Shown here: positions 15,530 to 39,908 of the stretch, piece by piece
How positions within the stretch are numbered: position 1 is the first letter of the stretch
Layout: each line of letters begins with the position of its first letter
Origin: a virus
Lineage: Duplodnaviria > Caudoviricetes
Virus record (IMG/VR): IMGVR_UViG_3300038673_000134
Location: 1-39,908 of that record
Length of the DNA stretch: 39,908 bases
Reading direction: 5' to 3' (one strand)
Notes under the pieces: model-generated
What the model was told of the DNA's origin: nothing
The model's database searches: none
Seen by the model: only the letters and a program-made list of their open reading frames with translations
Position numbers and translations under genes: made by a program

Positions 15530-15587
15530 AAGACCTTTCAACAATACTTGGGATTACCTGTACAAGCAGCCACGTTCTTTGTCTGCA

Positions 15588-15720
15588 CCCGATAACTGGA
15601 ACTTCAACTCGTCCAACCCGTGCCTGCACGTGGGCGGTAACTATAACCAGAACCAGAATCACGGGCTTTTCTACGTGAACTACAACGGCACTTCGAACGC
15701 GAACGCGAACATCGGCTGCC
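15588..15720 (+). ncRNA. DGR template repeat (TR)
   Basis: 12 AAC codons plus one AAT in the VR frame; 36 adenines; lies between VR and RT. Confidence 0.93.
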
Positions 15721-15872
15721 CCACCTTGCCTTTTGTGTGGCTAACACCCCTCCTCACCAATGGTACAGGTTTTCGCACGCCCCAAGGCGAAGATAAGCCG
15801 ACAGGACACGGTTTAGTACCCTCCGAAAGGAGCGAGGGAAAGATCGTGAGGCTACAAGGAGGAAAGACCCCT

Positions 15873-16982
15873 GTGAAACGAAAAGGAAATCTCTACGAAA
15901 AACTGATCTCTGATGAAAACCTGCGCCTGGCGCTGTTCACGGTGAATAAAACCCACCGCTGGCACCCAGGGCACAAGCCAAACAAGACCGTGCAGCGCGT
16001 GGAGGCCAATATTGACGGCTATGTGCGCGACCTGCGAGAGATCATCGACGACGGCTTTGTTCCCCATGCTCCAAACCTGAAAAGGCGCTGGGACAAGAGC
16101 GCCGGCAAATGGCGCGACATATCCGAACCGCGCCTTTGGCCGGATCAGTACGTACACCACGCAATGATCCAGGTGCTGGAGCCTGTTATGATGCGCGGTA
16201 TGGATCGCTTCTGCTGCGGCTCTATCCGGGGCAGAGGTATTCACTACGGCCAAAAGGCGATCAAGAAGTGGATGAAGAACGACGTCAAGGGCACGCGCTA
16301 TTGCCTGGAGCTGGATATTCACCATTTCTATGACAGCTTACAGCCGTCCGTCGTCATGGATCGCATGAAAGAGCTTGTGAAAGACCGGCGCGTGCTGGAT
16401 CTGCTGGAACGCGTAACGAAAGACGGCATTCTGATCGGCGCCTATTACAGCCAATGGTGCGCGAACACTACCCTGCAACCGCTCGACCAGATGATCCGGC
16501 AGCACGACTGCGTGAAGCATTACCTGCGCTACATGGATAATTTCACGATCTTCGGCTCCAACAAGCGAAAGCTGCACCGGCTGCTGCTGGAAATTTCCGC
16601 ATGGCTTGGCAGCAAGGGCCTTTCCGTGAAAGCAAACTGGCAGGTGTACCCCACGGCGAAGCGAATGACAACGGCCCTTGGCTACCGATACGGGCACGGC
16701 TATACCGTGCTGCGGAAGCGGAACGCCCTTCGCCTGAAACGGCGGCTTGCCCTGTGCCGGTATAAGAGGCGGCACCACCAGCGTATCATGCCGCGCTTTG
16801 CGGCCGGCCTGCTGTCACGCCTGGGGCAGCTGCGTCATTGCAGCAGCGTCGCCTTTTATCGCTTCTTCGTGATGCAAGGCTTACAGAGGTTTCTGAAAGA
16901 GATTGTGAGGGCACACGCCAGAAAGGAGCAGACAAAATGGAACGCGATTATATCTTCGGCACCACAGAACGCAACGGCCTGA
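15873..16982 (+). CDS. DGR reverse transcriptase (369 aa)
   Basis: GTG after AAGGAGG; KWRDI..P, DQYVHHA, GSIRGRG, LELDIHHFYDS, IGAYYSQ (DGR-type GxxxSQ), YLRYMDNF, LGY. Confidence 0.93.
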   Translation: MKRKGNLYEKLISDENLRLALFTVNKTHRWHPGHKPNKTVQRVEANIDGYVRDLREIIDDGFVPHAPNLKRRWDKSAGKWRDISEPRLWPDQYVHHAMIQVLEPVMMRGMDRFCCGSIRGRGIHYGQKAIKKWMKNDVKGTRYCLELDIHHFYDSLQPSVVMDRMKELVKDRRVLDLLERVTKDGILIGAYYSQWCANTTLQPLDQMIRQHDCVKHYLRYMDNFTIFGSNKRKLHRLLLEISAWLGSKGLSVKANWQVYPTAKRMTTALGYRYGHGYTVLRKRNALRLKRRLALCRYKRRHHQRIMPRFAAGLLSRLGQLRHCSSVAFYRFFVMQGLQRFLKEIVRAHARKEQTKWNAIISSAPQNATA

Positions 16983-21629: not shown

Positions 21630-24600
21630 ATGAGTTTTAGTGATTGGACCAAAAAGCGGAAGCAACAGAATGCGTCCGCGAATCAGGACACCACAAAGGA
21701 ACAGAGCGGGACGCAGGCAACTGCGTCCGTTGCCGCTTCCAGCATTGCGCGGGATGACAAGCCCTCCTCTTTCGGTGAGTGGACCAGAAAAAGCCAGGGC
21801 GAGGCCGCGTGGCGCGACGAGGAGGTAGGGTTCAACGATTGGCTGGATAGCCTCTCGAAATTCTTCACCAGAATGAGCGATGACTATTCAAAACGGGATG
21901 GGGTCTACCAGAGCGCCGACACGATGGGGACCTATCTGGACGATACAGGCCGTGGAATCGATGCGCTTTCCCAGAAATCTGATGCCTATAAGCAGTATTT
22001 TACCGCCTACAAGAGCATGTACGACGAGCTTTACGGGGAGGATGCTGTCAACCAGATTCTCTCCTCTCTGGACGTGGGCAGCAAATACCTTTCCAACGTG
22101 CGCGAAAGCCTGAATAAGGAATCCGATTATTGGGCGCAGTTCCAGGATCAGGACGCATACGATCAGTACCAGAAGTACCTGAAATGGCAGGCGGTTCCGC
22201 AGGCGTCTGACTTTGCGGAAAAGAGCCAGTATAAAACCACCTACAACCCGGACAACGAGCATTTCAACGCCTGGACTGGCACCTATACCGACACCGGCTT
22301 TGGAGACGTCTATTACGATTACATCAACGGAGACGAGACCGCACAGAGCCGCACCATGCTGAACGACGTGAACGCAGGCGGCCCCGGAAGCCTATACGCC
22401 ACCACGCACGACTACTGGAAAGACCTGCCCGAAGATGTAGTAAAGACGTTCAACTACATCTATGCTACCGAGGGATCGGAAGCTGCATACGAGTACATCG
22501 GCGCCACGATCCAAAAGACCTACACCGGCATAGAGGCGCTTGGCCTTGGCTTCCTGCAAGGAACCGGCACCGCTTCCCTTTCTGCTGCGCTTGGCAAGGC
22601 CTATGCCGGCATCAGCGGAGACGACGAAGCCGGAGACCGCACGGACGACTGGTACAATCAGCTTCTCCAGGAAACCGCAGCGGCCAGCACAGAGCACCCC
22701 GGAATGGCCACCGCAGGCCAGGCAACCGGCACACTCAGTCTCATGGCCGGCATTGCCACCGGCATCGGCGCCATTGAGGGATTTTCCTCCTTGCCGGCAA
22801 TCGCACAGTCCATCATATCCGGCGGCGCTTCCCTTGGAGGCACGCAGGCGATCCAGGGCATTGGCGGCGCAGCAACCGGCAACCAGAGCTGGGGAGACTA
22901 CGCGCTTGACGTAGGCACCAACACGCTTTCCGGCGCGGCCGGCGGCGCTCTCTCCTCTGGCATCGGGACATGGGGAACAAAGTTCCTCCAGGGCAAGGGC
23001 CTTGCAGGGAACCAGCTTGCAAGAACCGTTGTCGCCGGTCTTTCCGGCACCGGCTTTGTGTCCGGCAGCAACGCAGTCTCACAGCCGGCGGAGTATCTGC
23101 GCGACCCGGAAAATTACGAGTTCGATATGAGCCAGTTTGCGGAGGAAGCCCTTGTCGGTTTTGCATTCTCCGCTTTCGGCTATCTCTCCAGAAACTACAC
23201 AACGGATCCCGGAACGGCCGCCCAAATGGACGCGGACGATGCTCTTGTAAACAAATACTTCAAGGGCATGACGCAGGAAGAAGCGACAGCGGCTTACCGG
23301 CAGTATGCCAAGCAGTACCACCCGGATCTATACGCAAGCGCAGACGCAGCTACCCAGCAAGCCATGAATGCCACTATGGCAGAGGTAAACGCGGCCTATG
23401 CCCGCTTCAATGTCACCCACGGCGCGGCAGCATACCAGGCAGCCCAAGAGGCCAAGGCCAGCGGAAACACAACGGCTTATGAACAGGCTGCATCAGAGTT
23501 CCAGCAGAGCGCCGCAGCACTCCAGGCGGCGGCCACACAGGGCGGCCTTGCGACCGCAGAGACGGCAGAGGCGGCGCAGATCCTGAACGCCGTTGCTTCC
23601 GGCATGGCCGGAGGCATGGCAAGCGAGGCCGTCACCGGCGCTGTTCCGGCAGTTACGGAGCAGCCGACGGCGCCCGCTGTCCAGGAAACCACCACACCGG
23701 CGCCCACGGCGCAGGAGATCACCACGCAGCTTGTGCAGGCGGGCGTGGAGCCGACCGAGGCGGAAAGTCTTGGCAGCAGTATGGCGGCGCTGATGAACGG
23801 AGAGGAGATCAGCGGGAACAAGGCCGGCGCCATTGCCGAAAATGAAGTGGCCGTTTCCATTCTGGAAAACACCACCGGCCAGCAGATCAACACCGACGCA
23901 CCTCTGTCCGAAGTTAAGGCGGCCATTCGCAGCCTTGCAAGCCCCGCAGAGACACAGGAGGCGGCGCCGGCAGGCGTGGACACCGCCCTGGAAGAACGCG
24001 CAGCAGCGGCCGCAGAAACGGCCGTACAGCCCAGCGACATTGACGCCGTGCGGGACTTCGCCTCCACCCTGGAGAAGGCGGGCAGCAAGGCCCTGACCAC
24101 CATGTTCAACGACGGGCAGAACGCCGCTGATTATGTCCAGGAGATGATGCAGGAGTATAACGCCGGCCGCAGCGGAGCGGAGTTCACAGGCGGCAGCACG
24201 CATCTTGTTATCAATCAGACCCAGGCGGAGGCGGCCTATCTCGCAGGGCAGGCAGACGCGCACAACGCCACAGAAACCGTATTGCAGCCGAGCGAAAAAC
24301 AGGGTACAATTAAGGCAGAAAAGAAAACCTTTGTGCCGGCGAAAAAGGCCGACTGGGCCGCGCATGACGTCCAGTATTTTGTACCTGGCAAAAAGACGCC
24401 GATTGCATATAGCACAATCTCCGACCGCGACCTGCTGGGCGTGCTTGCAGATGCACACCCGGATGCTACGATCTCCGATCTGCGCGATTACATCAACTAC
24501 GGCGAGGAAGCAAAGCGCATTGTTGACGCTTATGTTGCCAACGGCTACGGGGACGAGAACGCAAATAAATACTTCACCTATGACGGGAATAAGCTGGCCG

Positions 24601-27600
24601 CAAAGGTTGGCGAAACAGTAAAGGAGGACACCACCAATGGCAGACAGGCAGGAGCTGATCGACAGGGAGTACGACCGAGTGAAGCGGGAAATGATGGAAC
24701 AGGGTCTGCGGAGCGACGAGGCGGCGGACTACGCGATGGAGGCGGCGAACACTCTGGCGGCGAGCCTGGGGCCGGACGAGGCAGAGGCGCTGCCGAGCTT
24801 GGAACGGCAACTGAAGTACCAGTGGGAAATGAGCGAATCGAAGCAAAAGTACGAGAAGTTCAGAGTGGCGCCGAACCAAGTGGAAACAGCTCTGGAAATG
24901 ACAATGATGTTCGAGGGGACGGAGGAACACGAGCGCCAGCAACTGGTGAAAAAGTGGGTGCAGAAGCTGAAGGAGACGCCGGCAGAGTAGAACCGGCGCC
25001 GTTGGAGGCAGTTACCCCGGAGCAGCAGTCACAGCAGAAAGCAGATCTTGCAAATCAGGAGCAGCCCAAGGGCAACAACTTTGTTATCCAGGAAAAGGGC
25101 GGCGTCAAGATCCCGACCACGCCAAAGAGCAGATACACCGCAAATGTGGCGGCCATCAAAACGCTGCGCAATATCATGGCCGGAGACCGGCTTGCCACCC
25201 CGGCAGAGCAGGAAATACTTGCGAAGTACACCGGCTGGGGCGGGATCTCCAATGCCTTTGACGGAAAGAACGGCTTTGAAAAGGAGTTCGCACAGCTGCA
25301 AAAGCTCCTGGACGACGGAGAATATAAGACCGCCAAGGCGTCTATCCTGGACGCCTATTTCACCGAGCCTGAAATTATCCGCGCTATGTATAACGGCCTG
25401 GCTTCTTTGGGCTTCACCGGCGGCCGTCTGCTGGAGCCGAGCGCCGGCGTTGGCCGTTTCATCGGAGCTATGCCGCAGGATATGCTTTCCGGCGTGCGTT
25501 CTTTCACGGCCGTGGAGCTGGATAAGATCACCGGCAGCATTGCAAAGTACCTGTACCCAAACGCCGATGTGCGCGTGCAGGGCTTTGAAGCGGCGAAGAT
25601 CCCGCAGGAGTACATGGACGTGGCCATTGGCAACGTCCCGTTTGGCAACATTGCCGTTGCAGACAAGGCGTACCCGGCGGCCGTCACCAAGTCTATCCAC
25701 AATTATTTCATAGCAAAGAGCCTGGATAAGGTGAGACCCGGCGGCATCGCCACGTTTATAACCAGTACAGGCACTATGGACGCCGAAAACAGCGCGGCCC
25801 GCGACTTCTTCATGAAGCAGGCTGATCTGATCGGCGCTATTCGTCTGCCCAATACCGCGTTCCAGAGCGCCGGCACTCCTGTTGTCACGGATATTCTTGT
25901 TTTCAAAAAGCGCGAGGCCGGCACGCCTTACAAGGGAGAGGCATTCACCGAGGTTGGACACAAGGGCTGGACGGAACCTGGGCATTACGGCAACTATGCC
26001 ATCAACGAGTATTTCATCAAGCACCCCGAAATGCTGCTTGGTAAGGCCGCTTATGGCACGGGCCAGTATGGCCGCACCATCGTGACCTATGACCCCCTGG
26101 ACAGCAGGTACAGCCTCCAGACCCAGATTGAGCGCGCCTTTGCAAAGATCGACGCCAAAATGGAATACCCCGTGCAGAAAAGCGGAGAGGAGATCCGGGC
26201 GGAGATCAAGGCTGACGCTGGAAAGGCGAAGCCCGGAACCATCGTCAAAAAGAACGGGAAGTTCTACAAGGCCGAAAACGGCGCCCTGGTGGAGACCGCA
26301 GACATAGCGGCCAAGGACGCGGAGCGCATGACCTCTGTTCTGGAGATCCGCGACACCGCCCGGAAGCTGCTTGACGCCCAGGTGAACGGCGCCGGCGCCG
26401 GAGAGATCGACATTTATCGCAAGAACCTGAATACCCTCTATGACGCCTTTGTGAAAGAGCATGGTATTCTCCACAAGCAGGGCAACCAGCGGCTTGTCAG
26501 CAAGGACGGAGACAGCGCCTTTATTATGGCCCTGGAGGACTACAACAAGGACACCGGCGTGGGCGCAAAGGCTGCCATTTTCACGAAGAACACCGTCGCC
26601 CCCATTCAGGCCGTCACGCACGCCGACAGCGTAGACCAGGCAATGACCATCACTCTCAATGAGAGCGGAACGGTTGACCTTGCAAGGATCGCGCAGCTGA
26701 CCGGCGGAACCGTGGACAGCGTAAAGTCAGAGCTGCTCAACCGCGAGCTTGCCTATCTGAACCGAAACGGAGACCCGGAGCCGGCGACGCAGTATCTTTC
26801 CGGCAACGTCCGGGCGAAACTGCGGGACGCAGAGGCACTGGCGGAAGCAGACCCCGCGTACAAGCGCAATGTGGATGCTCTGAAAAAGGTGATCCCCGCC
26901 GACATTGCGCCGGAGGACGTGAGCGTGCGCCTGGGCGCCACATGGATCCCGGACAGCGTTTACAGCCAGTTTGCATCTGAAATGCTGGGCGGCGGCACGA
27001 CCTACGACTATAAGCGCGGGCAGGTTCCGTCCGTGGAAGTGACCTACAACCGCCAGGTTGGAAAATACTTCGTCACCATCAACGACAACTGGATGCGCTC
27101 CCGCCCGGAGAATACCACAGAATGGGGCACGTCTGACCGGCCGCTGGTCGGATCCGAAAACGCCTCTATCCTCCCTGCTGCCCTGAACAACAAAACCGTC
27201 TCCGTCTGGCGCACCGTGGGCGATAACCGCGTGCTGGATATTCAGGCGACCCAGGCGGCCCAGGAGAAAATGGCAAAGGTGCTGGCGGAGTTCTCCCGCT
27301 GGCTCTGGAAAGATGCCGGCCGCCGCGCGGAGCTTGGCAAGCAGTATAACGACACGTTCAACAACACTGTCACCCCCAAATATGACGGCAGCAATCTGAC
27401 CGTGAACGGCAGCAACCCGGACATGAAGATGCGGCCGCACCAGCTGGACGCCGTGCAGCGGATCATCAGCAGCGGGGGCAATACCCTGCTTGCACACCGC
27501 GTCGGCGCCGGAAAGACCTATGAAATGGCAGCGGCAGCCATGAAGCTGCGGCAGCTTGGCGTTGTGAAAAAGCCGGTATTCATCGCACCGAACCACCTTG

Positions 27601-30600
27601 TGGCACAATGGGGCAATGAGTTCCTTTCCTACTTCCCGGCAGCAAAGATCAAGGTTGTTGAAAAAGGCAGCCTGACGGCGAAGAACCGCAAGATCTTCGC
27701 AAACCAAATCGCCACCGGCGACTTCGACGCCGTGATTATGAGCTACGAGCAATTTGAAGCCATACCCATGAGCGATACGAGCCTGGAAGCATTCTACCAG
27801 GAGCAGATCGACAGCCTGGAGCAGGCAATCCTGGAGAGCAAGCGGGCAAAGGGCAAGGATCCCAGCGTGCGCGATATGGAACGCTCCAAAAAATCACTTG
27901 AAGCCAAGCTGAAGAACCTGGTCAATGAGGGCAAAAAGGACGTTGACAATATCGACTTTGAGCAGCTTGGCATTGACGCCCTGTTCGTAGACGAGGCCCA
28001 CAACTTCAAAAACCTGTTCTATACCACCAAAATGCAGGGCGTGGCCGACATGGGCGACAAGAGCGGATCCCAGCGTGCGCTTGACCTCTACATGAAAGTG
28101 CGCTATCTGCAAAGGCTGAACGGCGGGCGCGGCATTGTCTTTGCGACCGCGACGCCGGTTATGAACAGCGTTGTTGAGCTTTACACCATGCAGCGCTATT
28201 TGCAGCCGGATCTTCTGGAGGCAAAGGGTCTTACCAACTTCGACGCCTGGGTAAACCAGTTCGGAGAAGTCACCAGCATTCGCCGCATGAAGCCCAGCGG
28301 AACCGGCTACGACATTAAGCAGAGCCTGTCCCGCTATAAGAACATGGCCGAAATGCAGCAGATGTTCCGCGCCTTTTCCGATGTGATCGTTGACGCGGAG
28401 GAGCTTCCGTACCTGGATATTCCCAAGATGAAAGGCGGAAAGCGAATTGTCGTCGAGTGCGAACCCGGCGACTTCCAACAGGCGTTCATGCAGCAGTTGA
28501 GCGAACGGGCAGAAAGCCTGAAAGGCAGCGGCGGCACAAAGGGCGGCGACCATATCTTCAAGATCATGGGCGACGGCAAGATGGTAAGCTATTCCCAGCA
28601 CATGATTAACCCGGCTCTCCCCTACGAGGACGAGGGCAAGATCATGAAGTGCGTGGACAACCTCTACCAGATATGGAAGCGCAGCGCCACCTTTACCGGC
28701 AAGGACGGAAAGGCACAGAAGAACGGCACGCAGCTTGTTTTCTGTGATCGTGGCGTGCCCGGAGGAAAGGACGCCGAACGCGGCGCCTGCATCTATTCCG
28801 ACATGAAGAACCTGCTTGTCGGTATGGGCGTGCCGGAAGAACAGATTGCCTTTATCCATGACGCGGCCAGCGACGCCGCAAAGGAGGAGCTTTTCAAGAA
28901 AGTCAATGACGGAGACGTGCGTATTTTGATCGGATCCTCTGACAAGATGGGCACCGGCATGAACGTGCAAAAGCGCATTGTGGCCCTGCATGAGCTGAAC
29001 GCGCCAGACCGCCCCGGCGACCTTGAACAGAACGAGGGCCGCGCACTCCGCCAGAAGAACCTGAACGCGGAAGTCGAGGTTTATTCCTACGTCACGAAGC
29101 GCACCTTCGACAGCCGGCAATGGGACACGCTGAAACGAAAGGCAATCTTTATCCACCAGGTTATGTCCGGCAACTACACCGGGCGCGAGGCTGCCGGCGA
29201 CGGTGACCTTGCCACCAGCGCAGCGGAGATCTCCGCCATTGCCTCTGACAATCCCCTTATCCTGGAACAGTTCGATATTTCCGAACAGATCAACACCCTG
29301 GAAAACCTGGAACGTGCCCACACCAAGGAGGCCAACGAGGCCAAGCAAAAGATCGTTAAGGCCCGCGCAGAGATTGCCCAGGACGAGGAATACCTTACCC
29401 GCTACAAGAACGACCTTGCAAGCCGCCAGGACACCGCAGGAGACAAGTTTAAGCTAACCCTGGACGGTAAGACCTACGACGAGAGAAAGACCGCAGGCGA
29501 GGCGTTAATCGGAAAGTCAAAGGACGTCCTGAAAATTGGCGACATTGAGAACAACACCGATGTTGGCAGCTTCGCCGGCTTCAAGCTGCTTCTAACCAGC
29601 AAAGGCGATATGCTGCTGCGTGGCGAGGCCCAATACAGAGGCACGGTCAATATGCAGAGCGCAGCCGGCACTATCCAGGCACTTGAGGCGATCCCGAAGC
29701 GCCTGGACGGCATCGTTGCAAACACCCAGGCCCGCCTTTCTGAAAACAAGGCGTCTATCGCCAAGCTGGAGAAAGCGGCGGCCGCTCCCTTTGACCGCGC
29801 AGACGAGCTTGTGAAACTGCGTGCGCGGGAAATGGAGATCATGACCGAGCTGAACCCGGAGAGCAACCGCGACATGGGCGTTGACGATGCGGACGGCGGA
29901 GCGGATCTGCTGGTCGATACCGAGAACACGGCAGACACCGTTTCCCAGGAGATCAGCAGCGCCAAAACCTCCATCAAACAGATCCCGGCCCTTTTCAAGG
30001 ATAAGAACGTGAAGTTCGGAAAAGTGAATATCGACATTGGCGGCGGCAAGTTCGACCTGGCGACGGACTACCTTAAATCCATCGGGACGCTGAACCTGGT
30101 ATTTGATCCCTACAACCGCAGCGAGGCCGTGAATGCCGACACCCTGAATTATCTGCGTGGAGGGTATAAGGCAGACACCGCCACTTGCGCCAACGTCCTC
30201 AACGTGATAAAGGAGCCGGCGGCCAGGGCGAATGTCATTCTTGAAACCGCAAAGGCGATCCTGCCCAATGGCCGTGTTTATTTCATGGTCTACGAGGGCG
30301 ACGGAAGCGGCGTCGGGAAAGAAACCTCCTCCGGCTGGCAGAACAACCGCAAGACCCGCGACTACATGGACGAGATCAGGAAGTATTTCAGAGGCGTGCA
30401 GCGCCAGGGCAAGCTGATTACAGCCACGGAGCCGAAAGGGAACCTGCCCAAGGCCTCCTGGGAAGTCTCACCCGGTAAGGGCGTTCTCTACAGCAAGGAC
30501 GTTACCAACGACGGCATACCGCACCCGGAACGCTGGACGGCAAAGCGCGTAGGCAGCAGCGACACGGCGCCAAAGCCGGTCTCTGATATTATCGCGCAGA

Positions 30601-33600
30601 TCCGGCACGACTTCGGTCTGAATGTTACCTATGGCCACGTGCGCGGCACAGGCGTGCGCGGGCAGTTCAACCCACGCGATAAGGGCATCAGAAGCCGGAT
30701 CGCAAACGACCTGCCCACCGTGTGCCACGAGTTGGGGCACGCCCTGGACGACCGCTTCTCCATTCTGGGCGACGATCTCACCAAGGAAATGCACGCAGAG
30801 CTGGAAAAGGCCCTGGGCGATCTCTCTGCCGGCTATAAAGAGGATCAGTACGACAGCGAGGGCCTTGCGGAGTTTCTGCGGCAGTTCCTGCAAAACAGAG
30901 AGACGGCCGCCATTGACTACCCGGCATTTACTAAATATCTGTTGGGGAAACTGGACGGGAAAACCCTCGCAACCTTGGAACAGCTTGCAGACGACGTAAA
31001 CGCCTATTATTCCCTGGACGCCGACAGCGCAGAGAGCAGCGTTCGCCTGCGCGAGGAGGGCGGCCCGGATCTTCGGACACATGGAGAGAAGATCCGGCAG
31101 ATGGGCAACGAGTTTTACCAGGCGTGGATCGACGCAAACCACGGCATTAAGCTATTCGACGAAGCCAACGGCAGCAGCGTCTATAAGCTGGCGACCAACA
31201 GCGCATACAGCGACGCCATAGCCGGCCGGATCATCACCAGCGATCTGACGGGTACCGACGGCCAGTACATCGGCCCCGGCCTGAAAACTGTCCTGCACGG
31301 CGTAAACACCCGCAGCAAGAAGGAATACAAGGCCTTTGGCGAATACCTCATTATGAGGCACGGCCCGGAATACCTGGCAGAGGGCAAGCGCGTATTTGCT
31401 GACGACCGAAAGAACAGCACCGCCTGGATGCAGCGCCGGCAGATGGAGCTGGAGCAGCAGTACCCGCAGTTTGAAGCAGCAGCAAAGCGCCTGTACCAGT
31501 TCCTTGCAGATCTCAATAAGGCGTGGGGCGTTGAAACACAGGTGATCGGCGCGGATCAGCTGGCCGAATGGCAGCAGCGCTGGCCCAATTATGTGCCGTT
31601 CAACCGCTCTTTGGCAAAGACCGGCCGTGCCGGAGCGAAGCGAGGCTACGCGAACCAGGCAAGCCCGTATAAGCGGGCAAAGGGCAGCGGCCTTGATATT
31701 GTCCACCCCGTTGATAATATCATTGACCAGATCGTTCTGCTGGTAAACGTGGGCGTTCGGAACAACGTCATGTATGAGCTGCGGAACGCTGCCCTGGATA
31801 AGGGCGCCGACGCCTCCCTGATGGAGAAGATCCCCACGCCGATGGTTCCGAAGTCTTTTGACATGACCGGCGTAAAGGTCCAGCTGGGCGAAGCGTTCAA
31901 GGACAGCGACCTGGAAGCCGACGACAAGATCATGGCCGACAAGATTATATCCAACCTGTCCGACGTGATGCTGCAATTCTCCAGGGGCAAGGCCCACGGG
32001 AACGTCGTCACCGTCATGGTGAACGGCAAGCCGGAGTTCTGGAAGATCAACGATAAGCTGCTGCTGGAGAGCATTACTTCTATGACGCCGGCGAAGCTCC
32101 ACGGCTGGCTGGAAGCCTACGCATTCACCACCCGCTTCATGACTGCCAACATCACCGGCAACAACCCCGTCTGGTCTATCTTCTCCAATGCGCCGCGTGA
32201 CCTTGGTACGTTTGCCGTTTTTTCAAAGGATAAGCGCCCATTCAAGGCCCTGGCAGCCATCGGAAGCGGCTACGTCAATGCTTTCAACGAGCGGTTCAGA
32301 GGCGGCCGAGGAATTAACCCGCTGTACGCAGAATACCTGGCAATGGGCGGCGGGCACACCTCCGCTTACTCTGCGGACGCTGACCTGGCACGAAAGGCAA
32401 GGAAGAAGCTGACGACCACCACCGCGCAGCGCGTCCTGGACACCATGAACCCCGTCAACTGGGTAACGTTCATCAGCGACACCATCGAGCAGGGGCCACG
32501 CTTTGCGACCTACAAGCTCATGCGCCAGGCGGGCCTGTCCCCGCAGGAGGCCTTTTACGAGGCAATGGACGTCACCACCAATTTCCGCCGCGCCGGCTAT
32601 ATGTCCCGCGACGTGAACAAGGCAGTTCCGTTTTTCAACGCCAGCGTGCAGGGCATCGACAAATTCAACAGGTACTTCACTGGCGAGGACGCCCCAAAAG
32701 GAGAACGGGCAAAGACTGTGCGGAACCGCTGGATCGCGTTCTTCACAGCAAGTGCCATCCTGGCAGCCATCATGTACGCGCTGAACAGCCACGACGACGA
32801 GAGCGCAAAGGACTATCAGCAGCTTTCCAATTACACAAAGAACAGCTATTGGTGCATCCCCCTGGGCGACGGAAAGTATTTCACAATTCCAAAGCCGCGT
32901 GAGCTGGCCGTTATGACTTCGTTCTTTGAAACCTGCATGGAAAGCTACATCGGTGGAAACGATCACGCTTTTGACGAGTTCTACGACTACGCAACAGACA
33001 ACTTCCTGCCCAGCGTAGTATCCGACCTGGCGCAGCTTCCCAGCAACATTGCCCAAGCAGGCACACAGCAGGGCCTGATCGACACCACTGCGGGCGCCCT
33101 TGGAAGCGCCGGCCTATTTGGTGTAGGCGCCTATATGGTTGCCAACCGTGACTTCCTGGGCAAACCGATAGAGAGTGCGACCATGCAGTACCTGGAGCCG
33201 AAAGACCGCTACAACAGCAGCACCAGTAAAATGGCCTACTGGATGGGGCAGGCGTTCAATTTAAGCCCGGCAATGGTTGACTACTTCGGGAACCAGGTGC
33301 TTGGCTACGTCTGGAAAGTTCCGAGAGCATTGTTCCCCGTGGGGCAAGACCCGGACTACAGCCTTGGCGTGAAGTCCACCTATTTAAAGGACAACGCCTA
33401 CTCCCAGGATCTTATCAACTGGATGTACGACCAGGCAGACGGATCTGCGCAGGCGAAAAAGAGCGACCCGGAGAACATGGACAAGGCCATTACCGCGAAG
33501 CTCGACAGCAGCATGACCGACTTTTACTCCAACTTCAACACCCTCAATAGAGACAAGGCAGACACCAACGAGCGCCGTCACACACGCCAGGTGGTGCTGG

Positions 33601-34163
33601 ATATGGTGAATGAGTATCGGAAAGCCAGCGAGAGTGGCGAGACCACGGCCGCCCAGGACGCCGTTTACGCCGTCGTCAGAGCTACCGGCGAAACCTCGTA
33701 TATGCCGTCGGTTATGAACACCTACGTCAAGGACGGCAACGACGTGAAGTACGCCCTGACTGACGAACAGTATGTGACCTACCAGACCAAGTACCTGGCC
33801 CTTTACTGGGACTATGCGGAGCGGAACCTTTCCACCGGCATAACCACGAAAGAAAAGGCAGCCATTCTCCAAGCGGCAAAGGACGTTGCCAAAGAGAGAG
33901 CCACAAATACTATGCTGACGCGGATCGGCGCAAGCAACACCGCATACGCGACCGATTACGCCGGCGTGGCAGACAGCGACGTGATCCAGTTTAAGGCCCA
34001 GACCGACCTTGCAAACGACGACGGAAGCCTGAAACAAGAGGAGGTAATCGGTATACTTGAGACAATGATCAGCGAGGGCCTTGGCTACGAGGACGCCTAC
34101 ACCCTGTTCCACTCCCGCTATGACAGCGACAAGAACAACCCCTGGAAGAAATACGCACCGTAA
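21630..34163 (+). CDS. giant DarB-like polyvalent virion protein (J-domain, N6-adenine MTase, SNF2 helicase, second MTase-like domain, zincin metallopeptidase, LPD38-like C-terminus)
   Basis: HPD 23319; LLEPSAGVG ~25430 and GNVPF 25632; HRVGAGKT ~27495 and DEAH 27990; NIDIGGG..FDPYN ~30030-30115; HELGH 30726. Confidence 0.85.
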   Translation: MSFSDWTKKRKQQNASANQDTTKEQSGTQATASVAASSIARDDKPSSFGEWTRKSQGEAAWRDEEVGFNDWLDSLSKFFTRMSDDYSKRDGVYQSADTMGTYLDDTGRGIDALSQKSDAYKQYFTAYKSMYDELYGEDAVNQILSSLDVGSKYLSNVRESLNKESDYWAQFQDQDAYDQYQKYLKWQAVPQASDFAEKSQYKTTYNPDNEHFNAWTGTYTDTGFGDVYYDYINGDETAQSRTMLNDVNAGGPGSLYATTHDYWKDLPEDVVKTFNYIYATEGSEAAYEYIGATIQKTYTGIEALGLGFLQGTGTASLSAALGKAYAGISGDDEAGDRTDDWYNQLLQETAAASTEHPGMATAGQATGTLSLMAGIATGIGAIEGFSSLPAIAQSIISGGASLGGTQAIQGIGGAATGNQSWGDYALDVGTNTLSGAAGGALSSGIGTWGTKFLQGKGLAGNQLARTVVAGLSGTGFVSGSNAVSQPAEYLRDPENYEFDMSQFAEEALVGFAFSAFGYLSRNYTTDPGTAAQMDADDALVNKYFKGMTQEEATAAYRQYAKQYHPDLYASADAATQQAMNATMAEVNAAYARFNVTHGAAAYQAAQEAKASGNTTAYEQAASEFQQSAAALQAAATQGGLATAETAEAAQILNAVASGMAGGMASEAVTGAVPAVTEQPTAPAVQETTTPAPTAQEITTQLVQAGVEPTEAESLGSSMAALMNGEEISGNKAGAIAENEVAVSILENTTGQQINTDAPLSEVKAAIRSLASPAETQEAAPAGVDTALEERAAAAAETAVQPSDIDAVRDFASTLEKAGSKALTTMFNDGQNAADYVQEMMQEYNAGRSGAEFTGGSTHLVINQTQAEAAYLAGQADAHNATETVLQPSEKQGTIKAEKKTFVPAKKADWAAHDVQYFVPGKKTPIAYSTISDRDLLGVLADAHPDATISDLRDYINYGEEAKRIVDAYVANGYGDENANKYFTYDGNKLAAKVGETVKEDTTNGRQAGADRQGVRPSEAGNDGTGSAERRGGGLRDGGGEHSGGEPGAGRGRGAAELGTATEVPVGNERIEAKVREVQSGAEPSGNSSGNDNDVRGDGGTRAPATGEKVGAEAEGDAGRVEPAPLEAVTPEQQSQQKADLANQEQPKGNNFVIQEKGGVKIPTTPKSRYTANVAAIKTLRNIMAGDRLATPAEQEILAKYTGWGGISNAFDGKNGFEKEFAQLQKLLDDGEYKTAKASILDAYFTEPEIIRAMYNGLASLGFTGGRLLEPSAGVGRFIGAMPQDMLSGVRSFTAVELDKITGSIAKYLYPNADVRVQGFEAAKIPQEYMDVAIGNVPFGNIAVADKAYPAAVTKSIHNYFIAKSLDKVRPGGIATFITSTGTMDAENSAARDFFMKQADLIGAIRLPNTAFQSAGTPVVTDILVFKKREAGTPYKGEAFTEVGHKGWTEPGHYGNYAINEYFIKHPEMLLGKAAYGTGQYGRTIVTYDPLDSRYSLQTQIERAFAKIDAKMEYPVQKSGEEIRAEIKADAGKAKPGTIVKKNGKFYKAENGALVETADIAAKDAERMTSVLEIRDTARKLLDAQVNGAGAGEIDIYRKNLNTLYDAFVKEHGILHKQGNQRLVSKDGDSAFIMALEDYNKDTGVGAKAAIFTKNTVAPIQAVTHADSVDQAMTITLNESGTVDLARIAQLTGGTVDSVKSELLNRELAYLNRNGDPEPATQYLSGNVRAKLRDAEALAEADPAYKRNVDALKKVIPADIAPEDVSVRLGATWIPDSVYSQFASEMLGGGTTYDYKRGQVPSVEVTYNRQVGKYFVTINDNWMRSRPENTTEWGTSDRPLVGSENASILPAALNNKTVSVWRTVGDNRVLDIQATQAAQEKMAKVLAEFSRWLWKDAGRRAELGKQYNDTFNNTVTPKYDGSNLTVNGSNPDMKMRPHQLDAVQRIISSGGNTLLAHRVGAGKTYEMAAAAMKLRQLGVVKKPVFIAPNHLVAQWGNEFLSYFPAAKIKVVEKGSLTAKNRKIFANQIATGDFDAVIMSYEQFEAIPMSDTSLEAFYQEQIDSLEQAILESKRAKGKDPSVRDMERSKKSLEAKLKNLVNEGKKDVDNIDFEQLGIDALFVDEAHNFKNLFYTTKMQGVADMGDKSGSQRALDLYMKVRYLQRLNGGRGIVFATATPVMNSVVELYTMQRYLQPDLLEAKGLTNFDAWVNQFGEVTSIRRMKPSGTGYDIKQSLSRYKNMAEMQQMFRAFSDVIVDAEELPYLDIPKMKGGKRIVVECEPGDFQQAFMQQLSERAESLKGSGGTKGGDHIFKIMGDGKMVSYSQHMINPALPYEDEGKIMKCVDNLYQIWKRSATFTGKDGKAQKNGTQLVFCDRGVPGGKDAERGACIYSDMKNLLVGMGVPEEQIAFIHDAASDAAKEELFKKVNDGDVRILIGSSDKMGTGMNVQKRIVALHELNAPDRPGDLEQNEGRALRQKNLNAEVEVYSYVTKRTFDSRQWDTLKRKAIFIHQVMSGNYTGREAAGDGDLATSAAEISAIASDNPLILEQFDISEQINTLENLERAHTKEANEAKQKIVKARAEIAQDEEYLTRYKNDLASRQDTAGDKFKLTLDGKTYDERKTAGEALIGKSKDVLKIGDIENNTDVGSFAGFKLLLTSKGDMLLRGEAQYRGTVNMQSAAGTIQALEAIPKRLDGIVANTQARLSENKASIAKLEKAAAAPFDRADELVKLRAREMEIMTELNPESNRDMGVDDADGGADLLVDTENTADTVSQEISSAKTSIKQIPALFKDKNVKFGKVNIDIGGGKFDLATDYLKSIGTLNLVFDPYNRSEAVNADTLNYLRGGYKADTATCANVLNVIKEPAARANVILETAKAILPNGRVYFMVYEGDGSGVGKETSSGWQNNRKTRDYMDEIRKYFRGVQRQGKLITATEPKGNLPKASWEVSPGKGVLYSKDVTNDGIPHPERWTAKRVGSSDTAPKPVSDIIAQIRHDFGLNVTYGHVRGTGVRGQFNPRDKGIRSRIANDLPTVCHELGHALDDRFSILGDDLTKEMHAELEKALGDLSAGYKEDQYDSEGLAEFLRQFLQNRETAAIDYPAFTKYLLGKLDGKTLATLEQLADDVNAYYSLDADSAESSVRLREEGGPDLRTHGEKIRQMGNEFYQAWIDANHGIKLFDEANGSSVYKLATNSAYSDAIAGRIITSDLTGTDGQYIGPGLKTVLHGVNTRSKKEYKAFGEYLIMRHGPEYLAEGKRVFADDRKNSTAWMQRRQMELEQQYPQFEAAAKRLYQFLADLNKAWGVETQVIGADQLAEWQQRWPNYVPFNRSLAKTGRAGAKRGYANQASPYKRAKGSGLDIVHPVDNIIDQIVLLVNVGVRNNVMYELRNAALDKGADASLMEKIPTPMVPKSFDMTGVKVQLGEAFKDSDLEADDKIMADKIISNLSDVMLQFSRGKAHGNVVTVMVNGKPEFWKINDKLLLESITSMTPAKLHGWLEAYAFTTRFMTANITGNNPVWSIFSNAPRDLGTFAVFSKDKRPFKALAAIGSGYVNAFNERFRGGRGINPLYAEYLAMGGGHTSAYSADADLARKARKKLTTTTAQRVLDTMNPVNWVTFISDTIEQGPRFATYKLMRQAGLSPQEAFYEAMDVTTNFRRAGYMSRDVNKAVPFFNASVQGIDKFNRYFTGEDAPKGERAKTVRNRWIAFFTASAILAAIMYALNSHDDESAKDYQQLSNYTKNSYWCIPLGDGKYFTIPKPRELAVMTSFFETCMESYIGGNDHAFDEFYDYATDNFLPSVVSDLAQLPSNIAQAGTQQGLIDTTAGALGSAGLFGVGAYMVANRDFLGKPIESATMQYLEPKDRYNSSTSKMAYWMGQAFNLSPAMVDYFGNQVLGYVWKVPRALFPVGQDPDYSLGVKSTYLKDNAYSQDLINWMYDQADGSAQAKKSDPENMDKAITAKLDSSMTDFYSNFNTLNRDKADTNERRHTRQVVLDMVNEYRKASESGETTAAQDAVYAVVRATGETSYMPSVMNTYVKDGNDVKYALTDEQYVTYQTKYLALYWDYAERNLSTGITTKEKAAILQAAKDVAKERATNTMLTRIGASNTAYATDYAGVADSDVIQFKAQTDLANDDGSLKQEEVIGILETMISEGLGYEDAYTLFHSRYDSDKNNPWKKYAP
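24282..24310 (+). promoter_or_regulatory. candidate internal sigma70-type promoter inside giant gene
   Basis: TTGCAG-17 bp-TACAAT. Confidence 0.4.
24637..24990 (+). CDS. nested alternative-frame gene (117 aa acidic helical protein)
   Basis: AAGGAGG at 24621-24627, 9 nt before ATG; protein-like composition while the host frame here is G/R/E low-complexity. Confidence 0.6.
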   Translation: MADRQELIDREYDRVKREMMEQGLRSDEAADYAMEAANTLAASLGPDEAEALPSLERQLKYQWEMSESKQKYEKFRVAPNQVETALEMTMMFEGTEEHERQQLVKKWVQKLKETPAE

Positions 34164-36912: not shown

Positions 36913-36959
36913 CTATATTTTGTGGCTGCTGCTGACCTGGTATCACAAGGTTTACCGTA

Positions 36960-36989
36960 TTGACGAAGCCCGAAACATTATTATAAAAT
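36960..36989 (+). promoter_or_regulatory. sigma70-type promoter for the transposase gene
   Basis: TTGACG then TATAAA/TAAAAT at 16/18 bp spacing. Confidence 0.6.
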
Positions 36990-37014: not shown

Positions 37015-37413
37015 ATGCCGAGACTTACATGGAACGATAAGCTGACGATAGAGAAAATGCTAAAGCAGGGCTGCAAGGCGCCGGCTATCGCCCGGAAGAT
37101 CGGCGTAAGCGACCAGGCGATCTATGACGAGATCAAGCGCGGCCGCGTGGAGGTTCTCGACAGCGAGCTGCGCCCAGGTGAGACGCGCACCATCGTTTAC
37201 TACTGCCACCCGCGCTATCCTGGCGAGAGGGGAAGCAACGAGAAGCAGAATCAAATGATCCGCTGGTTCTTCCCGAAAGGGACGGACTTCACCCATGTTA
37301 CCAACCGTGCCGTTAAAAAGGTGATCGACTGGATCAACAACTACCCGCGCTTGCTTCTGGACTGGCACACGAGTAACGACCTATTCTCCGTTTTTCTTGC
37401 AAGCGTCGCCTGA
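37015..37413 (+). pseudogene. IS30-family transposase with in-frame internal deletion (132 aa)
   Basis: N-terminal HTH (IARKIGVS..AIYDEIKRG) joined directly to IS30 C-terminus (YYCHP..PGERGSNE..N..IR.FFPKGTDF...INNYPR). Confidence 0.8.
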
Positions 37414-37458: not shown

Positions 37459-37511
37459 TCCAAGTTTTACTCTTGACATTTGCAGCTGTAAATGCTACCG
37501 TAAAACTTGGA
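37459..37511. mobile_element. IS30-type abutted IR-IR junction (putative attP of phage circle) with junction promoter
   Basis: tccaagttttactcttgacatttgCA-gc-TGtaaatgctaccgtaaaacttgga; 26/25-bp imperfect IRs, 2-bp spacer; TTGACA-17-TACCGT with extended TG. Confidence 0.8.
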
Positions 37512-37564
37512 AACCACGAAGTGGTTCTCCAGGTTTTATTTTTCCCCGAAAGGAGGAGGTACGC

Positions 37565-37810
37565 ATGGCACGGCTGACCCTGAAAGACCGCAAGCAGCTC
37601 AAAAAGATGTACGACGCAGACGAGCGCACGATTGTGATGGCCGTTAAGCTGGGCTGCTCTACCACCGCCATTTATGACGAGCTGAAGCGCGGCTACGCCG
37701 GCACGGATGAGCTTGAACGGCCGGTCTACGACCCCGACCTTGCGCAGCGCAAGGTGAACGCCAATGTGAAGCGCTGCGGCGGCAAGAACCGCCGGAGGAC
37801 GCCGGTATGA
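37565..37810 (+). CDS. stand-alone IS30-type HTH protein (81 aa)
   Basis: RBS AGGAGGAGG; LTLKDR...KLGCS..AIYDELKRG..Y....AQ, paralogous to the N-terminus of 37015. Confidence 0.75.
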   Translation: MARLTLKDRKQLKKMYDADERTIVMAVKLGCSTTAIYDELKRGYAGTDELERPVYDPDLAQRKVNANVKRCGGKNRRRTPV

Positions 37811-38475
37811 GAGACGAGGAACTGCTTCAGCTCTATCACCGGCAGCGAAGCACCAGACTACAGCGCCGGAGGCGGCGCAGCAGAAAGCTATTGATTCTGT
37901 CCTTTGTTCTTCTCCTGGCGGCCCTGATCCTGGCTGTCTACGTCCGCGCAGACGCCGAAAAGCAAATGGCCGACAAGTTAGAAAAGGCAGCAGCGCCAAC
38001 GGTTCCAGTCACACAGGCGCTTGTGCTGCCGGAAGCGGATCAAGTAAACGCCGCCTATGACACCAAGGCGGCGGAGCCGGTTACATACGAGCTTCCCTCC
38101 CCTGTTGAGGTGATCTCCAAGGCCGTCTACGGCGAGGCGCGTGGCTGTTCCATAACGGAGCAGGCAGCCGTCGTCTGGTGCATCTGCAACCGCGTGGACG
38201 CCGGCTACGGCGACCTGGTGGAAGTCACCACCGCGCCGCACCAGTTCCACGGCTACGACGAGGACAACCCCGTGACGCCGGAGATCAAAGCCCTGGTACA
38301 GGACGTTCTAATCCGCTGGCGCATGGAAGAAAGCTGCATCGGCAACGTGGGCCGTGTGCTCCCGAAAGAATACCTGTTCTTTTCCGGCGACGGCCGGCGC
38401 AACTACTTCCGGACCGAATGGAACGGCGGGAGCACCTGGGACTGGTCCCTTGCAAGCCCGTATGAGGAGGGATAG
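37807..38475 (+). CDS. membrane-anchored SleB/Hydrolase_2-like cell wall hydrolase
   Basis: TM helix after Arg-rich start; VYGEARG, VVWCICNRV, QFHGY, YLFFSGDG..NYF. Confidence 0.75.
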   Translation: MRDEELLQLYHRQRSTRLQRRRRRSRKLLILSFVLLLAALILAVYVRADAEKQMADKLEKAAAPTVPVTQALVLPEADQVNAAYDTKAAEPVTYELPSPVEVISKAVYGEARGCSITEQAAVVWCICNRVDAGYGDLVEVTTAPHQFHGYDEDNPVTPEIKALVQDVLIRWRMEESCIGNVGRVLPKEYLFFSGDGRRNYFRTEWNGGSTWDWSLASPYEEG

Positions 38476-38477
38476 GC

Positions 38478-38921
38478 GTGGGATTAAAGGCCGTCCCCCT
38501 TGAGCGTCCGGATGCAAACGCATTTGTTGACCGCCTGCACCGCCACCATAGCAGCCGCATCGGAGACAAGTTTCGCATCGGTTGTGCTTGCGGCGACAAG
38601 CTCGTAGGCGTTGTCCAAGTCGGGCGTCCTGTTGCAAGGGCGCTATGCGACGGGAAAACGCTTGAAGTTCTTAGACTATGCACGGACGGGACGCCTCACG
38701 CCTGTTCCTTCCTCTATGGTGCCGCCGCACGCGTTACGCGGGAGTTGGGCTACCAGAAAATCATCACCTACATTTTGCGTGACGAGCCTGGGACAAGCCT
38801 TGTGGCGTCTGGATGACATAAAGAGGCAGACATCCGAGGGAAATCATGGGATTGCCCCAGTAGGCCAAGAAACACCACTTCCCCCACCTGCGATAAGCAG
38901 CGATGGGCAAAAGACCTGTGA
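38478..38921 (+). pseudogene. XF1762-like (GNAT-like fold) protein interrupted by TGA at 38814-38816
   Basis: HRHH, VGRPVAR, LEVLRLCTDG, CSFLYGA, ITYIL..E.GTSL.ASG* then in-frame SW.CPSRPR...K.RW to TGA 38919. Confidence 0.7.
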
Positions 38922-38933
38922 AGGAGGCAGGGC

Positions 38934-39659
38934 ATGAACCATTTACAGGAAAAGCGGCTGGCGCTGGAACTGACACAGCCGCAGGTTTCGGCAAGGCTCA
39001 AAGAGGTTGAGCCGAGGGCCGACGTGGGCATGGTCTCCCGCTATGAAAAGGGCGTGTGCCTGCCGACCGGCCCGCAGCTCTCCGTTCTGGAGGAGCTTTA
39101 CGGCGCTGCCAGAACGGAGTTGTACGACGCGGAGGACCTGGACCTGTCACAGCCTGACGTCGTAAGGCTGCTGCGGCCCCGCTGCCCTATCATGGACGTT
39201 TCTCTTTACTCAAAGATTGAGAACGGCCATTGTTTACCCAACAAAGAGACCATGAAAGCCCTGGAGGCCGCCTTGCAAGCCCCTGTGTCGGTTTTGTTTG
39301 AGCCGGACGAGCTGGCGGCCCTCCCGGACGACGAGGGCCAGGAAAAGGCACTATGCGTCAATCCCTACTATGCCATGCTGGCAACCGCGATCCCCTACGG
39401 CCGGCGGAACGCCATCACCCGGCAGGCGCTGGCCGCAAAGCTGGGCATGAATGACCGCGCAGCACGCAAAGCAATCGAGGAGGCCAGAGCGGCCGGCCTG
39501 CTGATTATGTGCGAACAGAACGGCAGGGGCTACTACCAGAGCGACGACCCCGTTGAAATGCGCTGCCAGTACCAGCAGGACACCAACCGGGCAATGAGTA
39601 TTCTGAAACGACGCAAGCCGCTGCGAGACGCCTTAAAGGCCGCCGGGCAGCGCGTATAA
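38934..39659 (+). CDS. multi-HTH regulator (two XRE-like HTH + winged HTH)
   Basis: LTQPQVS..VSRYEKG.CLP; LSQPDVV..YSKIENG.CLP; AITRQALAAKLGMNDR..R..IE...GYY. Confidence 0.7.
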   Translation: MNHLQEKRLALELTQPQVSARLKEVEPRADVGMVSRYEKGVCLPTGPQLSVLEELYGAARTELYDAEDLDLSQPDVVRLLRPRCPIMDVSLYSKIENGHCLPNKETMKALEAALQAPVSVLFEPDELAALPDDEGQEKALCVNPYYAMLATAIPYGRRNAITRQALAAKLGMNDRAARKAIEEARAAGLLIMCEQNGRGYYQSDDPVEMRCQYQQDTNRAMSILKRRKPLRDALKAAGQRV

Positions 39660-39683
39660 ATCAATTTTAGGAGGACAAGCATC

Positions 39684-39908
39684 ATGGACGAGAAACAGGA
39701 AATGACCCCGCAGCAGCACGAAATGGCCCTTTATGAGGGCGCTGTTCAGCGCTTCGGCAGTATGGCGCAGATCGACCAGGCCATTGAGGAAATGGCAGAG
39801 CTGACCGTAGCCCTGAACAAGTACAAGCGCTTTATCCGCTTCCGCCAGGGTGACGAGGAAACCGTTCGGCAGCGCGTGGCAGAGGAGCGGGCCGACGTCA
39901 GTATCATG
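39684..39908 (+). CDS. MazG-like protein, 3'-truncated by window end
   Basis: RBS AGGAGG; MDEKQ..MALYE..QIDQAIEEMAELTVALNKYKR..EERADVSIM. Confidence 0.65.
   Translation, partial: MDEKQEMTPQQHEMALYEGAVQRFGSMAQIDQAIEEMAELTVALNKYKRFIRFRQGDEETVRQRVAEERADVSIM
39768..39830 (+). repeat. 63-bp direct repeat, copy 2 (copy 1 at 58-120)
   Basis: 61/63 identity with 58-120. Confidence 0.9.

Follow-up and report, generated by a model that had tools for sequence, protein, structure and literature searches.

A candidate early-operon promoter assembled at the joined ends of an IS30-transposase phage genome

Gene content, transposase and ends of the phage genome

The stretch of DNA analysed here (the window) is an entire 39.9-kb contig of 39,908 nucleotides, on which every recognised gene lies on the + strand. 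It encodes YqaJ, RecT, a DnaB_2-type initiator, terminase, portal and capsid proteins, a reverse transcriptase, a polyvalent protein, a holin and a CHAP lysin; a scan of 38 ORFs found neither a tyrosine nor a serine recombinase. The junction that is the subject of this work is bordered by two HTH_38 genes, a transposase gene (37015-37413) and a gene for a small HTH protein (37565-37810). The reverse transcriptase (15579-16982) accompanies a diversity-generating retroelement whose variable and template repeats, each of 133 nt (15344-15476 and 15588-15720), show 12 differences, every one of them at a template adenine, and whose target is the C-terminus of a 798-aa ORF (13100-15496). The polyvalent protein (4,177 aa, 21630-34163) contains methylase-like, SNF2 helicase and LPD38 domains.

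The gene layout is that of the IScream phages (PMC12823448) and of the Faecalibacterium phage Lagaffe (PMC5883640), as these are described in the parts of the papers compared here. Terminase, portal, capsid, holin and CHAP lysin are all present, IS30-type genes stand at both prophage ends with no other integrase among the 38 ORFs, and the inward truncated IS30-like gene is represented by the 81-aa HTH protein. IScream phages possess a full transposase, whereas the outward IS30 transposase of the window has lost 212 residues and is no longer a full-length enzyme with its catalytic domain. For this reason, the genome is classed as a defective derivative of the IScream phages and not as a full member. 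Given that the close relatives are assigned to Oscillospiraceae, Oscillibacter and Faecousia, we infer a host of the family Oscillospiraceae. The contig is not a clean circle, because its ends (1-210 and 39712-39908) overlap in a MazG-like gene with 81% and 71% identity. They are two alleles of this gene, probably left by an assembly break at a strain bubble, and circularity was therefore deduced from the gene order in the relative L005, where HTH, hydrolase, multi-HTH, Zn-finger and YqaJ genes follow one another in unbroken order.

The outward IS30-family transposase (37015..37413, + strand) has 132 aa and carries an in-frame loss of 212 residues with the break near 37172-37180, while its relatives have 343-344 aa. 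The deletion corresponds to 636 bp between 8-bp direct repeats in the intact relative L001, and over the shared part the transposases of intact relatives reach up to 86-91% identity. The relatives' enzymes contain PF00665 and PF13936 and are named as IS30 family, not Mutator family. Since the lost part includes the first two DDE aspartates, the window phage probably cannot integrate without help. The possibility that the deletion arose in assembly was rejected, since contigs of two runs (X1 and X2) of one sample, possibly the source of the window, bridge it with 0 differences. Among the pieces listed, contigs identical to the window pass through the junction, and variants with an intact gene or with integrated ends coexist.

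The transposase gene has a separate predicted sigma-A-type promoter, TTGACG-18-TAAAAT (36960..36989, + strand), which ranks second in the matrix scan. An IR-like box over this promoter (36946-36959, 12/14) was considered as an autoregulatory site and rejected, given that 20 of 100 shuffles match as well and that 115 relatives show no enrichment over a control stretch. The top sigma-A-like site of the window, TTGAAA-17-TATACT on the minus strand (36866-36838), runs antisense into the lysin gene; a leftward site of such quality before the transposase occurs in 3 of 39 close relatives, the window included. The earlier note had seen no divergent cI/cro pair. This holds for the window, where no cI or XRE gene was found anywhere, but most of its relatives do have a gene of this type: of 150 distinct upstream regions, 105 hold a co-oriented XRE-type gene directly before the transposase gene, and these proteins match PHROG repressor families. 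The remaining 45 regions gave no match to the 5-seed profile used, which may miss further XRE genes. From lysin to transposase, an XRE gene is also absent from near-identical relatives with an intact transposase (X4 record 17, X6 record 25).

The junction between the two HTH_38 genes consists of the right inverted repeat of the prophage (IRR, 37459..37484, + strand), a 2-bp GC spacer (37485..37486) and the left inverted repeat (IRL, 37487..37511, + strand). IRR was assigned from the alignment of the repeats, from loose contig ends and from the integrated right ends of relatives, and IRL from a loose end and 35 distinct integrated left ends in relatives. The prophage ends were placed at 37484 and 37487 because contigs of related strains in other runs leave the window exactly there (X4 and X6 at 37484, X2 at 37487, among the loose ends listed). 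An inner box of 12 bp and a terminal part of 8 bp are common to the two repeats, whose sequences diverge between these shared parts. Among 41 distinct junctions in relatives the spacer is 2 bp long in 38, with 17 different spacer strings overall. Judged by its sequence, 37459-37511 is the right end, the 2-bp spacer and the left end of an IS30-transposase phage of the IScream/Lagaffe type. An exact search with 24 nt of IRL gave 0 matches in viral contigs. A degenerate IRL pattern in genome contigs returned mostly chance matches; 134 of 247 matches over all loci were dropped, having no HTH gene, hairpin or junction, and several of the rows shown are also chance.

In one genome contig (G044:C4, 46480-132580), a 43-kb prophage is duplicated in tandem between 15-bp duplications; the two copies meet at an internal 2-bp junction, and the two spacer bases are the same as those that end the left duplication. 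The contig may represent a genuine tandem lysogen, which would mean that a lysogen tolerates an assembled junction, or else the assembler may have merged a circle with a prophage.

The split promoter, the hairpin and the early genes

The earlier note had proposed that a promoter arises where the ends are joined, and its elements were found where it had placed them. The -35 hexamer TTGACA (37473-37478) lies inside IRR and the extended -10 TG-C-TACCGT (37493..37501; TG 37493-94, TACCGT 37496-37501) inside IRL, both on the + strand. Their separation of 17 nt is present in the joined state only, via the 2-bp GC spacer, and the two repeats differ from each other exactly where these hexamers sit. 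From the spacing to the -10 only, transcription is predicted to start at 37508-37510. The -10 is weak, agreeing with TATAAT at three of six positions (T1, A2, T6), and because of this the site is absent from the list of a consensus scan. Scored by a matrix whose training set was 28 host promoters from relatives, the site reaches 12.2 and comes 7th among 79,754 sites, the weakest training promoter scoring 12.4, and it is the sole + strand site scoring at least 8 from the junction round to the terminase small subunit, that is, over about 7.9 kb of early genes.

The same arrangement is found in relatives. In the 41 distinct junctions, some of which were collected by means of patterns with a fixed -10, the median matrix score is 14.4 and the minimum 9.2, as against a median of -3.8 and a maximum of 7.0 for the 35 integrated left ends, and the spacing is 17 in 38 junctions, 16 in 1 and 18 in 2. 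Given that the patterns fix the -10, a second set of loci was chosen without a promoter motif: 294 transposase C-terminus loci were collapsed to 202, of which 72 have an HTH gene within 600 nt. These 72 loci represent 34 left-end types, and their transposases share 41-85% identity with the query. A promoter was called in the forward direction in 29 of the 34 types and in the reverse direction in 2, the shuffles giving a mean of 6.7 and a maximum of 15; the strict rule at the single best site is satisfied in 24 of 34, and L141, L321 and L352, which are mis-picked or atypical, are kept in the denominator. The joined-ends promoter is thus kept across lineages, and Lagaffe and phages nd4 and nd12 are among the types that have it. 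In the 29 types with 17-bp spacing, where the site was itself picked as the best promoter, TTG is invariant (29/29) and the -12 T, -11 A and -7 T have frequencies of 0.79, 0.97 and 0.90, while conservation in columns 11-22 between the boxes is mostly 0.31-0.69. One clade has TACTAA or TATCAA at the -10, without the -7 T. Some of the conservation of the promoter boxes is to be expected from transposase binding.

The promoter points to the early operon, from the HTH gene onward, and not to the transposase, which lies upstream of the junction. As the earlier note had described for most of these genes, it faces the small HTH gene and then, at 37807..39908 (+ strand), hydrolase-like, Mom-like, multi-HTH and MazG-like genes, continuing at the contig start with YqaJ, RecT and the DnaB_2-type initiator; the order as far as YqaJ is continuous in L005. 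The HTH, hydrolase and later genes overlap or abut, and no + strand terminator-like site is listed between 37545 and 39908. The joined ends assemble a predicted sigma-A-type promoter that likely drives the early operon. Of four metatranscriptomes, two had no contig and two gave short pieces within 37694-38470, none reaching the junction; such contigs show neither starts nor strand.

The predicted start is straddled by the 5' arm of a hairpin followed by a U-tract (37500..37543, + strand), a predicted intrinsic terminator for read-through RNA. The hairpin (37500-37540) has a folding energy of -20.6 kcal/mol and a z of -4.2, with 0 of 200 shuffles as good, and the T-tract occupies 37534-37543. 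This geometry fits the suggestion in the earlier note that host read-through in the prophage would be terminated there. Of the 34 types, 30 have behind the -10 a stem that reaches -12 kcal/mol or better, together with a T-rich window. Since hairpin and U-tract straddle the predicted start, read-through RNA would contain the full terminator and junction RNA a shortened one. Indeed, when folded up to the U-tract, read-through RNA has a median of -13.5 kcal/mol and a gap of 0, and junction RNA starting 7, 8 or 9 nt after the -10 has medians of -9.5, -8.0 and -6.0 kcal/mol with gaps of 2, 3 and 4; in the window itself the values are -13.4 kcal/mol for read-through versus -10.5, -9.8 and -5.6 kcal/mol for the three candidate starts. 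Junction RNA is still terminator-like in 18, 2 and 0 of 38 types for these starts, in an analysis where six loci are not anchored, L141 is mis-anchored, and the 38/38 obtained for read-through is in part a consequence of how the analysis was built. A terminator that the junction promoter bypasses would fit this design, with an outcome that hangs on the exact start: with the first candidate, a terminator-like hairpin no more than 2 nt from the U-tract is kept in 18 of 38 types, the window included, and junction RNA may then be attenuated as well. The hairpin may also act as a DNA operator, given that its 3' arm (37528-37538) repeats the inner IR box and that the excess of G-U over A-C pairs (31 versus 20, p 0.08, with six rows mis-anchored) is not significant.

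The first gene behind the junction promoter encodes the small HTH protein (81 aa, 37565..37810, + strand; phrog_11420), which matches Pfam HTH_38 with an E of 5e-4, under the curated cut-off. It is paralogous to the transposase N-terminus and forms its own clade apart from transposase N-termini with a support of 100/100 (78 rows, 77 columns). Its complete copies are mostly of about 80 aa (64-96) with a C-terminal signature of their own, and dN/dS is 0.03-0.36 over 38 non-independent pairs. By its own clade and these ratios, it is a maintained gene under purifying selection and not a decaying IS copy. As sole query it returned no relatives in viral contigs, its predicted structure (pLDDT 85) gave no fold match at E <= 0.001, and its sequence matches are generic HTH proteins. 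According to Nagy et al. 2004, the first HTH of the E. coli IS30 transposase reportedly serves target choice and a second motif binds the inverted repeats. As a lead, if the IS30 parallel holds, an action of the small HTH on -35 boxes or in target capture would be more plausible than one on the inverted repeats.

The first gene after the junction is not always the small HTH (L046, L058), and in L046, L058, L335 and L426 an extra gene stands between the two. The gene table of phage FP01 in PMC13432834 gives the same order as these lineages. In the window, a small hairpin with a GAAA loop (37540-37558) is predicted over the ribosome-binding site of the small HTH gene. Longer 5' leaders between terminator and HTH gene, with conserved blocks, occur in L001 (3360-3530), L003 (3350-3490) and L005 (3340-3470), the coordinates being approximate; they look like structured RNA, and no match to them was found in Rfam.

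Integrated state and insertion sites in related phages

In the 35 distinct integrated left ends of relatives, the host bases that occupy the place of the -35 agree with TTGACA at three or fewer of six positions in 33 ends and at four in 2, which is background-like, and a good host-supplied -35 was found in 0 of 35. Where the left flank is at least 60 nt long, 28 of 32 cases show an outward-facing host sigma-A promoter whose -35 lies 25 or 26 bp away from the phage end; other pairs of offsets give 0-2, shuffles have a mean of 0.34 and a maximum of 3, and 25 right flanks show no peak of promoter offset. The X2 loose end, of 30 nt, holds five letters of a -35-like box at 25 bp.

Six pairs of left and right flanks are matched by 14-15-nt repeats, one pair on the same contig, and 15-bp duplications flank the prophages of G001:C3 and G044:C4. 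Among 17 whole elements gathered from 401 genomes without the use of patterns, 13 have direct repeats (nine of 15, two of 16 and two of 17 nt) and no direct repeat was found in the other 4; 11 of the 13 have an outward promoter at an offset of 24-29 bp. The repeats of 14-17 nt, mostly 15, differ from the 2-bp target duplication of E. coli IS30. The flanks indicate that the related phages choose sites 25-26 bp upstream of host sigma-A promoters that point away from them, and such an outward-facing landing site would help to keep the integrated phage silent.

By eye, the targeted promoters in four left flanks (L241, L246, L250 and L254) lead into tRNA-like sequence, from which strong stable-RNA promoters may be favoured. 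In L321/L034, two different IS30 phages are stacked, with about 15-16 nt between the right end of the first and the left end of the second, as expected if a single promoter-upstream target had served both phages. Small elements, 7-11 kb in size, that carry the same HTH and transposase ends were also seen (G149:C10 9198-18877, G201:C16 79692-86534 and G339:C49 16-10871), the first two also with a long duplication and an outward promoter; they are possibly satellites or episomes.

Proposed circuit and comparison with known systems

The ends, the 2-bp spacer, the split -35 and -10 and their conservation in the window and its relatives, together with the 15-bp duplications and the targeting in relatives, are read directly from sequence. 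The reading that we favour, with a probability of about 0.68, is that the joined ends assemble a sigma-A-type promoter for the early operon (HTH, recombination and replication genes) and not for the transposase, so that integration would switch it off and circle formation would switch it on. An infecting genome would bring an intact junction, and early transcription would be on by default, in competition with transposase-mediated integration. Integration would part the -35 from the -10, with a host flank that gives no -35 and a neighbouring host promoter that faces away, and stray read-through in the prophage would meet the full hairpin and U-tract. Induction would begin when the transposase is expressed from its separate promoter, a step probably controlled by XRE in most relatives, after which copy-out would lead through a figure-eight to the circle, the junction promoter would come on and replication would be committed. 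RNA started at the junction would lack the outer hairpin arm and so escape most termination, and the small HTH would be a dedicated regulator, most likely in feedback on the junction or on re-integration. Without help in trans, the window genome itself would likely remain joined, with its promoter on.

Two parts of the proposal in the earlier note did not find support in the form given there. The junction had been called excision-created, and the parts of PMC9333248 compared here describe the circles of E. coli IS30 as arising by copy-out with the donor left intact, from which the order of transposase, circle and promoter in our scheme is taken. The note had further held that DNA rearrangement would itself be the genetic switch. 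In this strong sense the claim is not supported, because the junction needs prior transposase expression, an XRE gene is present in 105/150 relatives and G044:C4 carries a junction in a tandem prophage. Repurposing of the junction promoter for early genes is supported by its direction, its conservation and its restriction to the joined state. Neither the transposase deletion nor the targeted integration had been remarked on in the earlier note. We regard the junction promoter less as a sensor than as a commitment lock that acts after the induction signal.

A bolder version of the favoured reading, which we regard as rather unlikely, would have no classical repressor in a widespread class of gut phages. 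At strong promoters, the transposase would recognise either the RNA polymerase of the host or the -35 box, and it would insert 25-26 bp behind these promoters, facing away, thereby cutting the only early promoter, which copy-out would rebuild. The small HTH, a domesticated first HTH of the transposase, would be the first product and would block re-integration in a one-way decision, and transposase-deletion variants would be natural virulent mutants.

It is also unlikely that rearrangement is the whole lysis/lysogeny switch, with no repressor, silence due to the split promoter only and lysogens that are not immune to superinfection. Such a view would agree with the absence of an XRE or cI gene from the window and its near-identical relatives with intact transposases, with the 45/150 upstream regions that gave no profile match, and with the stacked elements in L321/L034 and the 4 transposase and 5 HTH matches in G089. 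Against this, 105/150 relatives carry an XRE gene, a count that may rise further, as the 5-seed profile may miss genes, the conserved small HTH could itself be a repressor, and the G044:C4 tandem holds a junction within a prophage.

Quite improbable is a junction promoter that serves mainly re-integration, with the small HTH as a transposition cofactor, the lytic genes read from another, activator-dependent promoter and most junction RNA ended by the hairpin. The junction promoter (Pjunc) is an ancestral IS30 feature in the parts of PMC9333248 compared here, the shortened hairpin stays terminator-like in 18/38 types if the first candidate start is used, and the promoter scans detect sigma-A-type sites only, all of which would suit this idea. 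However, the early genes overlap or abut with no + strand terminator-like site listed behind the hairpin, no other + strand site scores 8 or more over their roughly 7.9 kb, and the transposase has its own promoter. The hexamers could lastly be a by-product of the sequence that the transposase binds in the repeats, and the hairpin a DNA operator formed with a third inner-IR box, with no regulated promoter at all. The repetition of the inner box at 37528-37538, the extended -10 TG belonging to the symmetric IR core and the non-significant G-U excess are compatible with it. We consider it very improbable, because the repeats differ exactly at the -35 and -10, the -10 positions are kept while flanking IR letters change, the signal is strand-specific (29 versus 2) and a U-tract follows the stem.

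The favoured reading, a junction promoter turned to the early operon, bears on phages that are common in the gut (1,780 candidates in MGV, according to the parts of PMC12823448 compared), and whose regulation and integration sites those parts do not address. The sequence evidence leads to a compact circuit of a split promoter, a start-straddling terminator, an outward-facing landing site and a conserved HTH. Since sigma-A promoters are conserved across Clostridia, the target rule, for which no report on IS30 enzymes was found, could account for reports that some of these phages lysogenise hosts of more than one family. Culturable models are available in Lagaffe, the B. hansenii phage and FP01. 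Virions are reported for the first two in the passages of PMC12823448 and PMC5883640 compared, and the FP01 gene table (PMC13432834) lists an IS30 transposase followed by an 84-aa HTH, though that phage is described as lytic.

What is already known comprises the phage class, IS junction promoters and the state-dependent switches of BPs and ICEKp1. Apparently new, in the sense of not found in print, are the redirection of a junction promoter to phage genes, the start-straddling terminator, the 15-bp duplications and the promoter targeting. The literature searched, mostly outside subscription papers, gave no junction promoter, 15-bp duplication or promoter targeting for IS30 phages. None of the four features (redirected junction promoter, start-straddling terminator, 15-bp duplications, targeting) was found in the IScream main text and the supplements searched; the word "promoter" is absent from the main texts of PMC12823448 and PMC5883640, and promoters go unmentioned in the parts compared of the megaplasmid preprint 10.64898/2026.02.21.707213 and the FP01 paper PMC13432834.

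The closest systems are the IScream phages and Lagaffe, described in the parts of PMC12823448 and PMC5883640 compared as tailed temperate phages that have neither a tyrosine nor a serine integrase, and in which an outward IS30 transposase and a short inward IS30-like gene occupy opposite ends. Lagaffe's own record (L475) shows the same junction, promoter pattern, hairpin and HTH. The text passages of the Lagaffe paper (Cornuault et al. 2018, PMC5883640) note direct repeats without a length or target rule, and its supplements and Fig. 3b may show the duplication length. The IScream paper (Wirbel et al. 2025, PMC12823448) calls the inward genes deprecated in the part compared, whereas here they form a conserved clade under purifying selection.

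The junction resembles IS30 Pjunc in that IRR and IRL abut over a 2-bp spacer that sets the spacing of a -35 and -10 shared out between them. It differs in facing phage early genes, in the 15-bp rather than 2-bp duplication (2 bp for E. coli IS30 in the parts of PMC9333248 compared) and in the terminator-like hairpin over the predicted start. Fusion promoters at joined ends are established for copy-out elements and normally raise transposase output, according to the section of PMC7780238 compared. In the present phage, the transposase gene has moved to the opposite end, behind a promoter-like site of its own. Promoter targeting at a fixed distance is shared with TnGBS, ISLre2 and ISKra4 (Guerillot et al. 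2014, PMC3942029); in the part compared, these have Mutator-family enzymes and a distance of 15-17 bp, whereas here an IS30-family enzyme of a phage uses 25-26 bp. Mycobacteriophage BPs (PMC3694055) and ICEKp1 (PMC13023037) are alike in that the integration state sets gene expression, as far as the parts of these papers compared describe it. In BPs, with its integrase, repressor and cro, attP lies within the repressor gene according to the corresponding part of PMC4557955, whereas the present junction is intergenic and the recombinase of the IS30 type. ICEKp1, in the part of PMC13023037 compared, switches the promoter of its integrase gene, whereas here a DDE transposase would split the promoter of an early operon.
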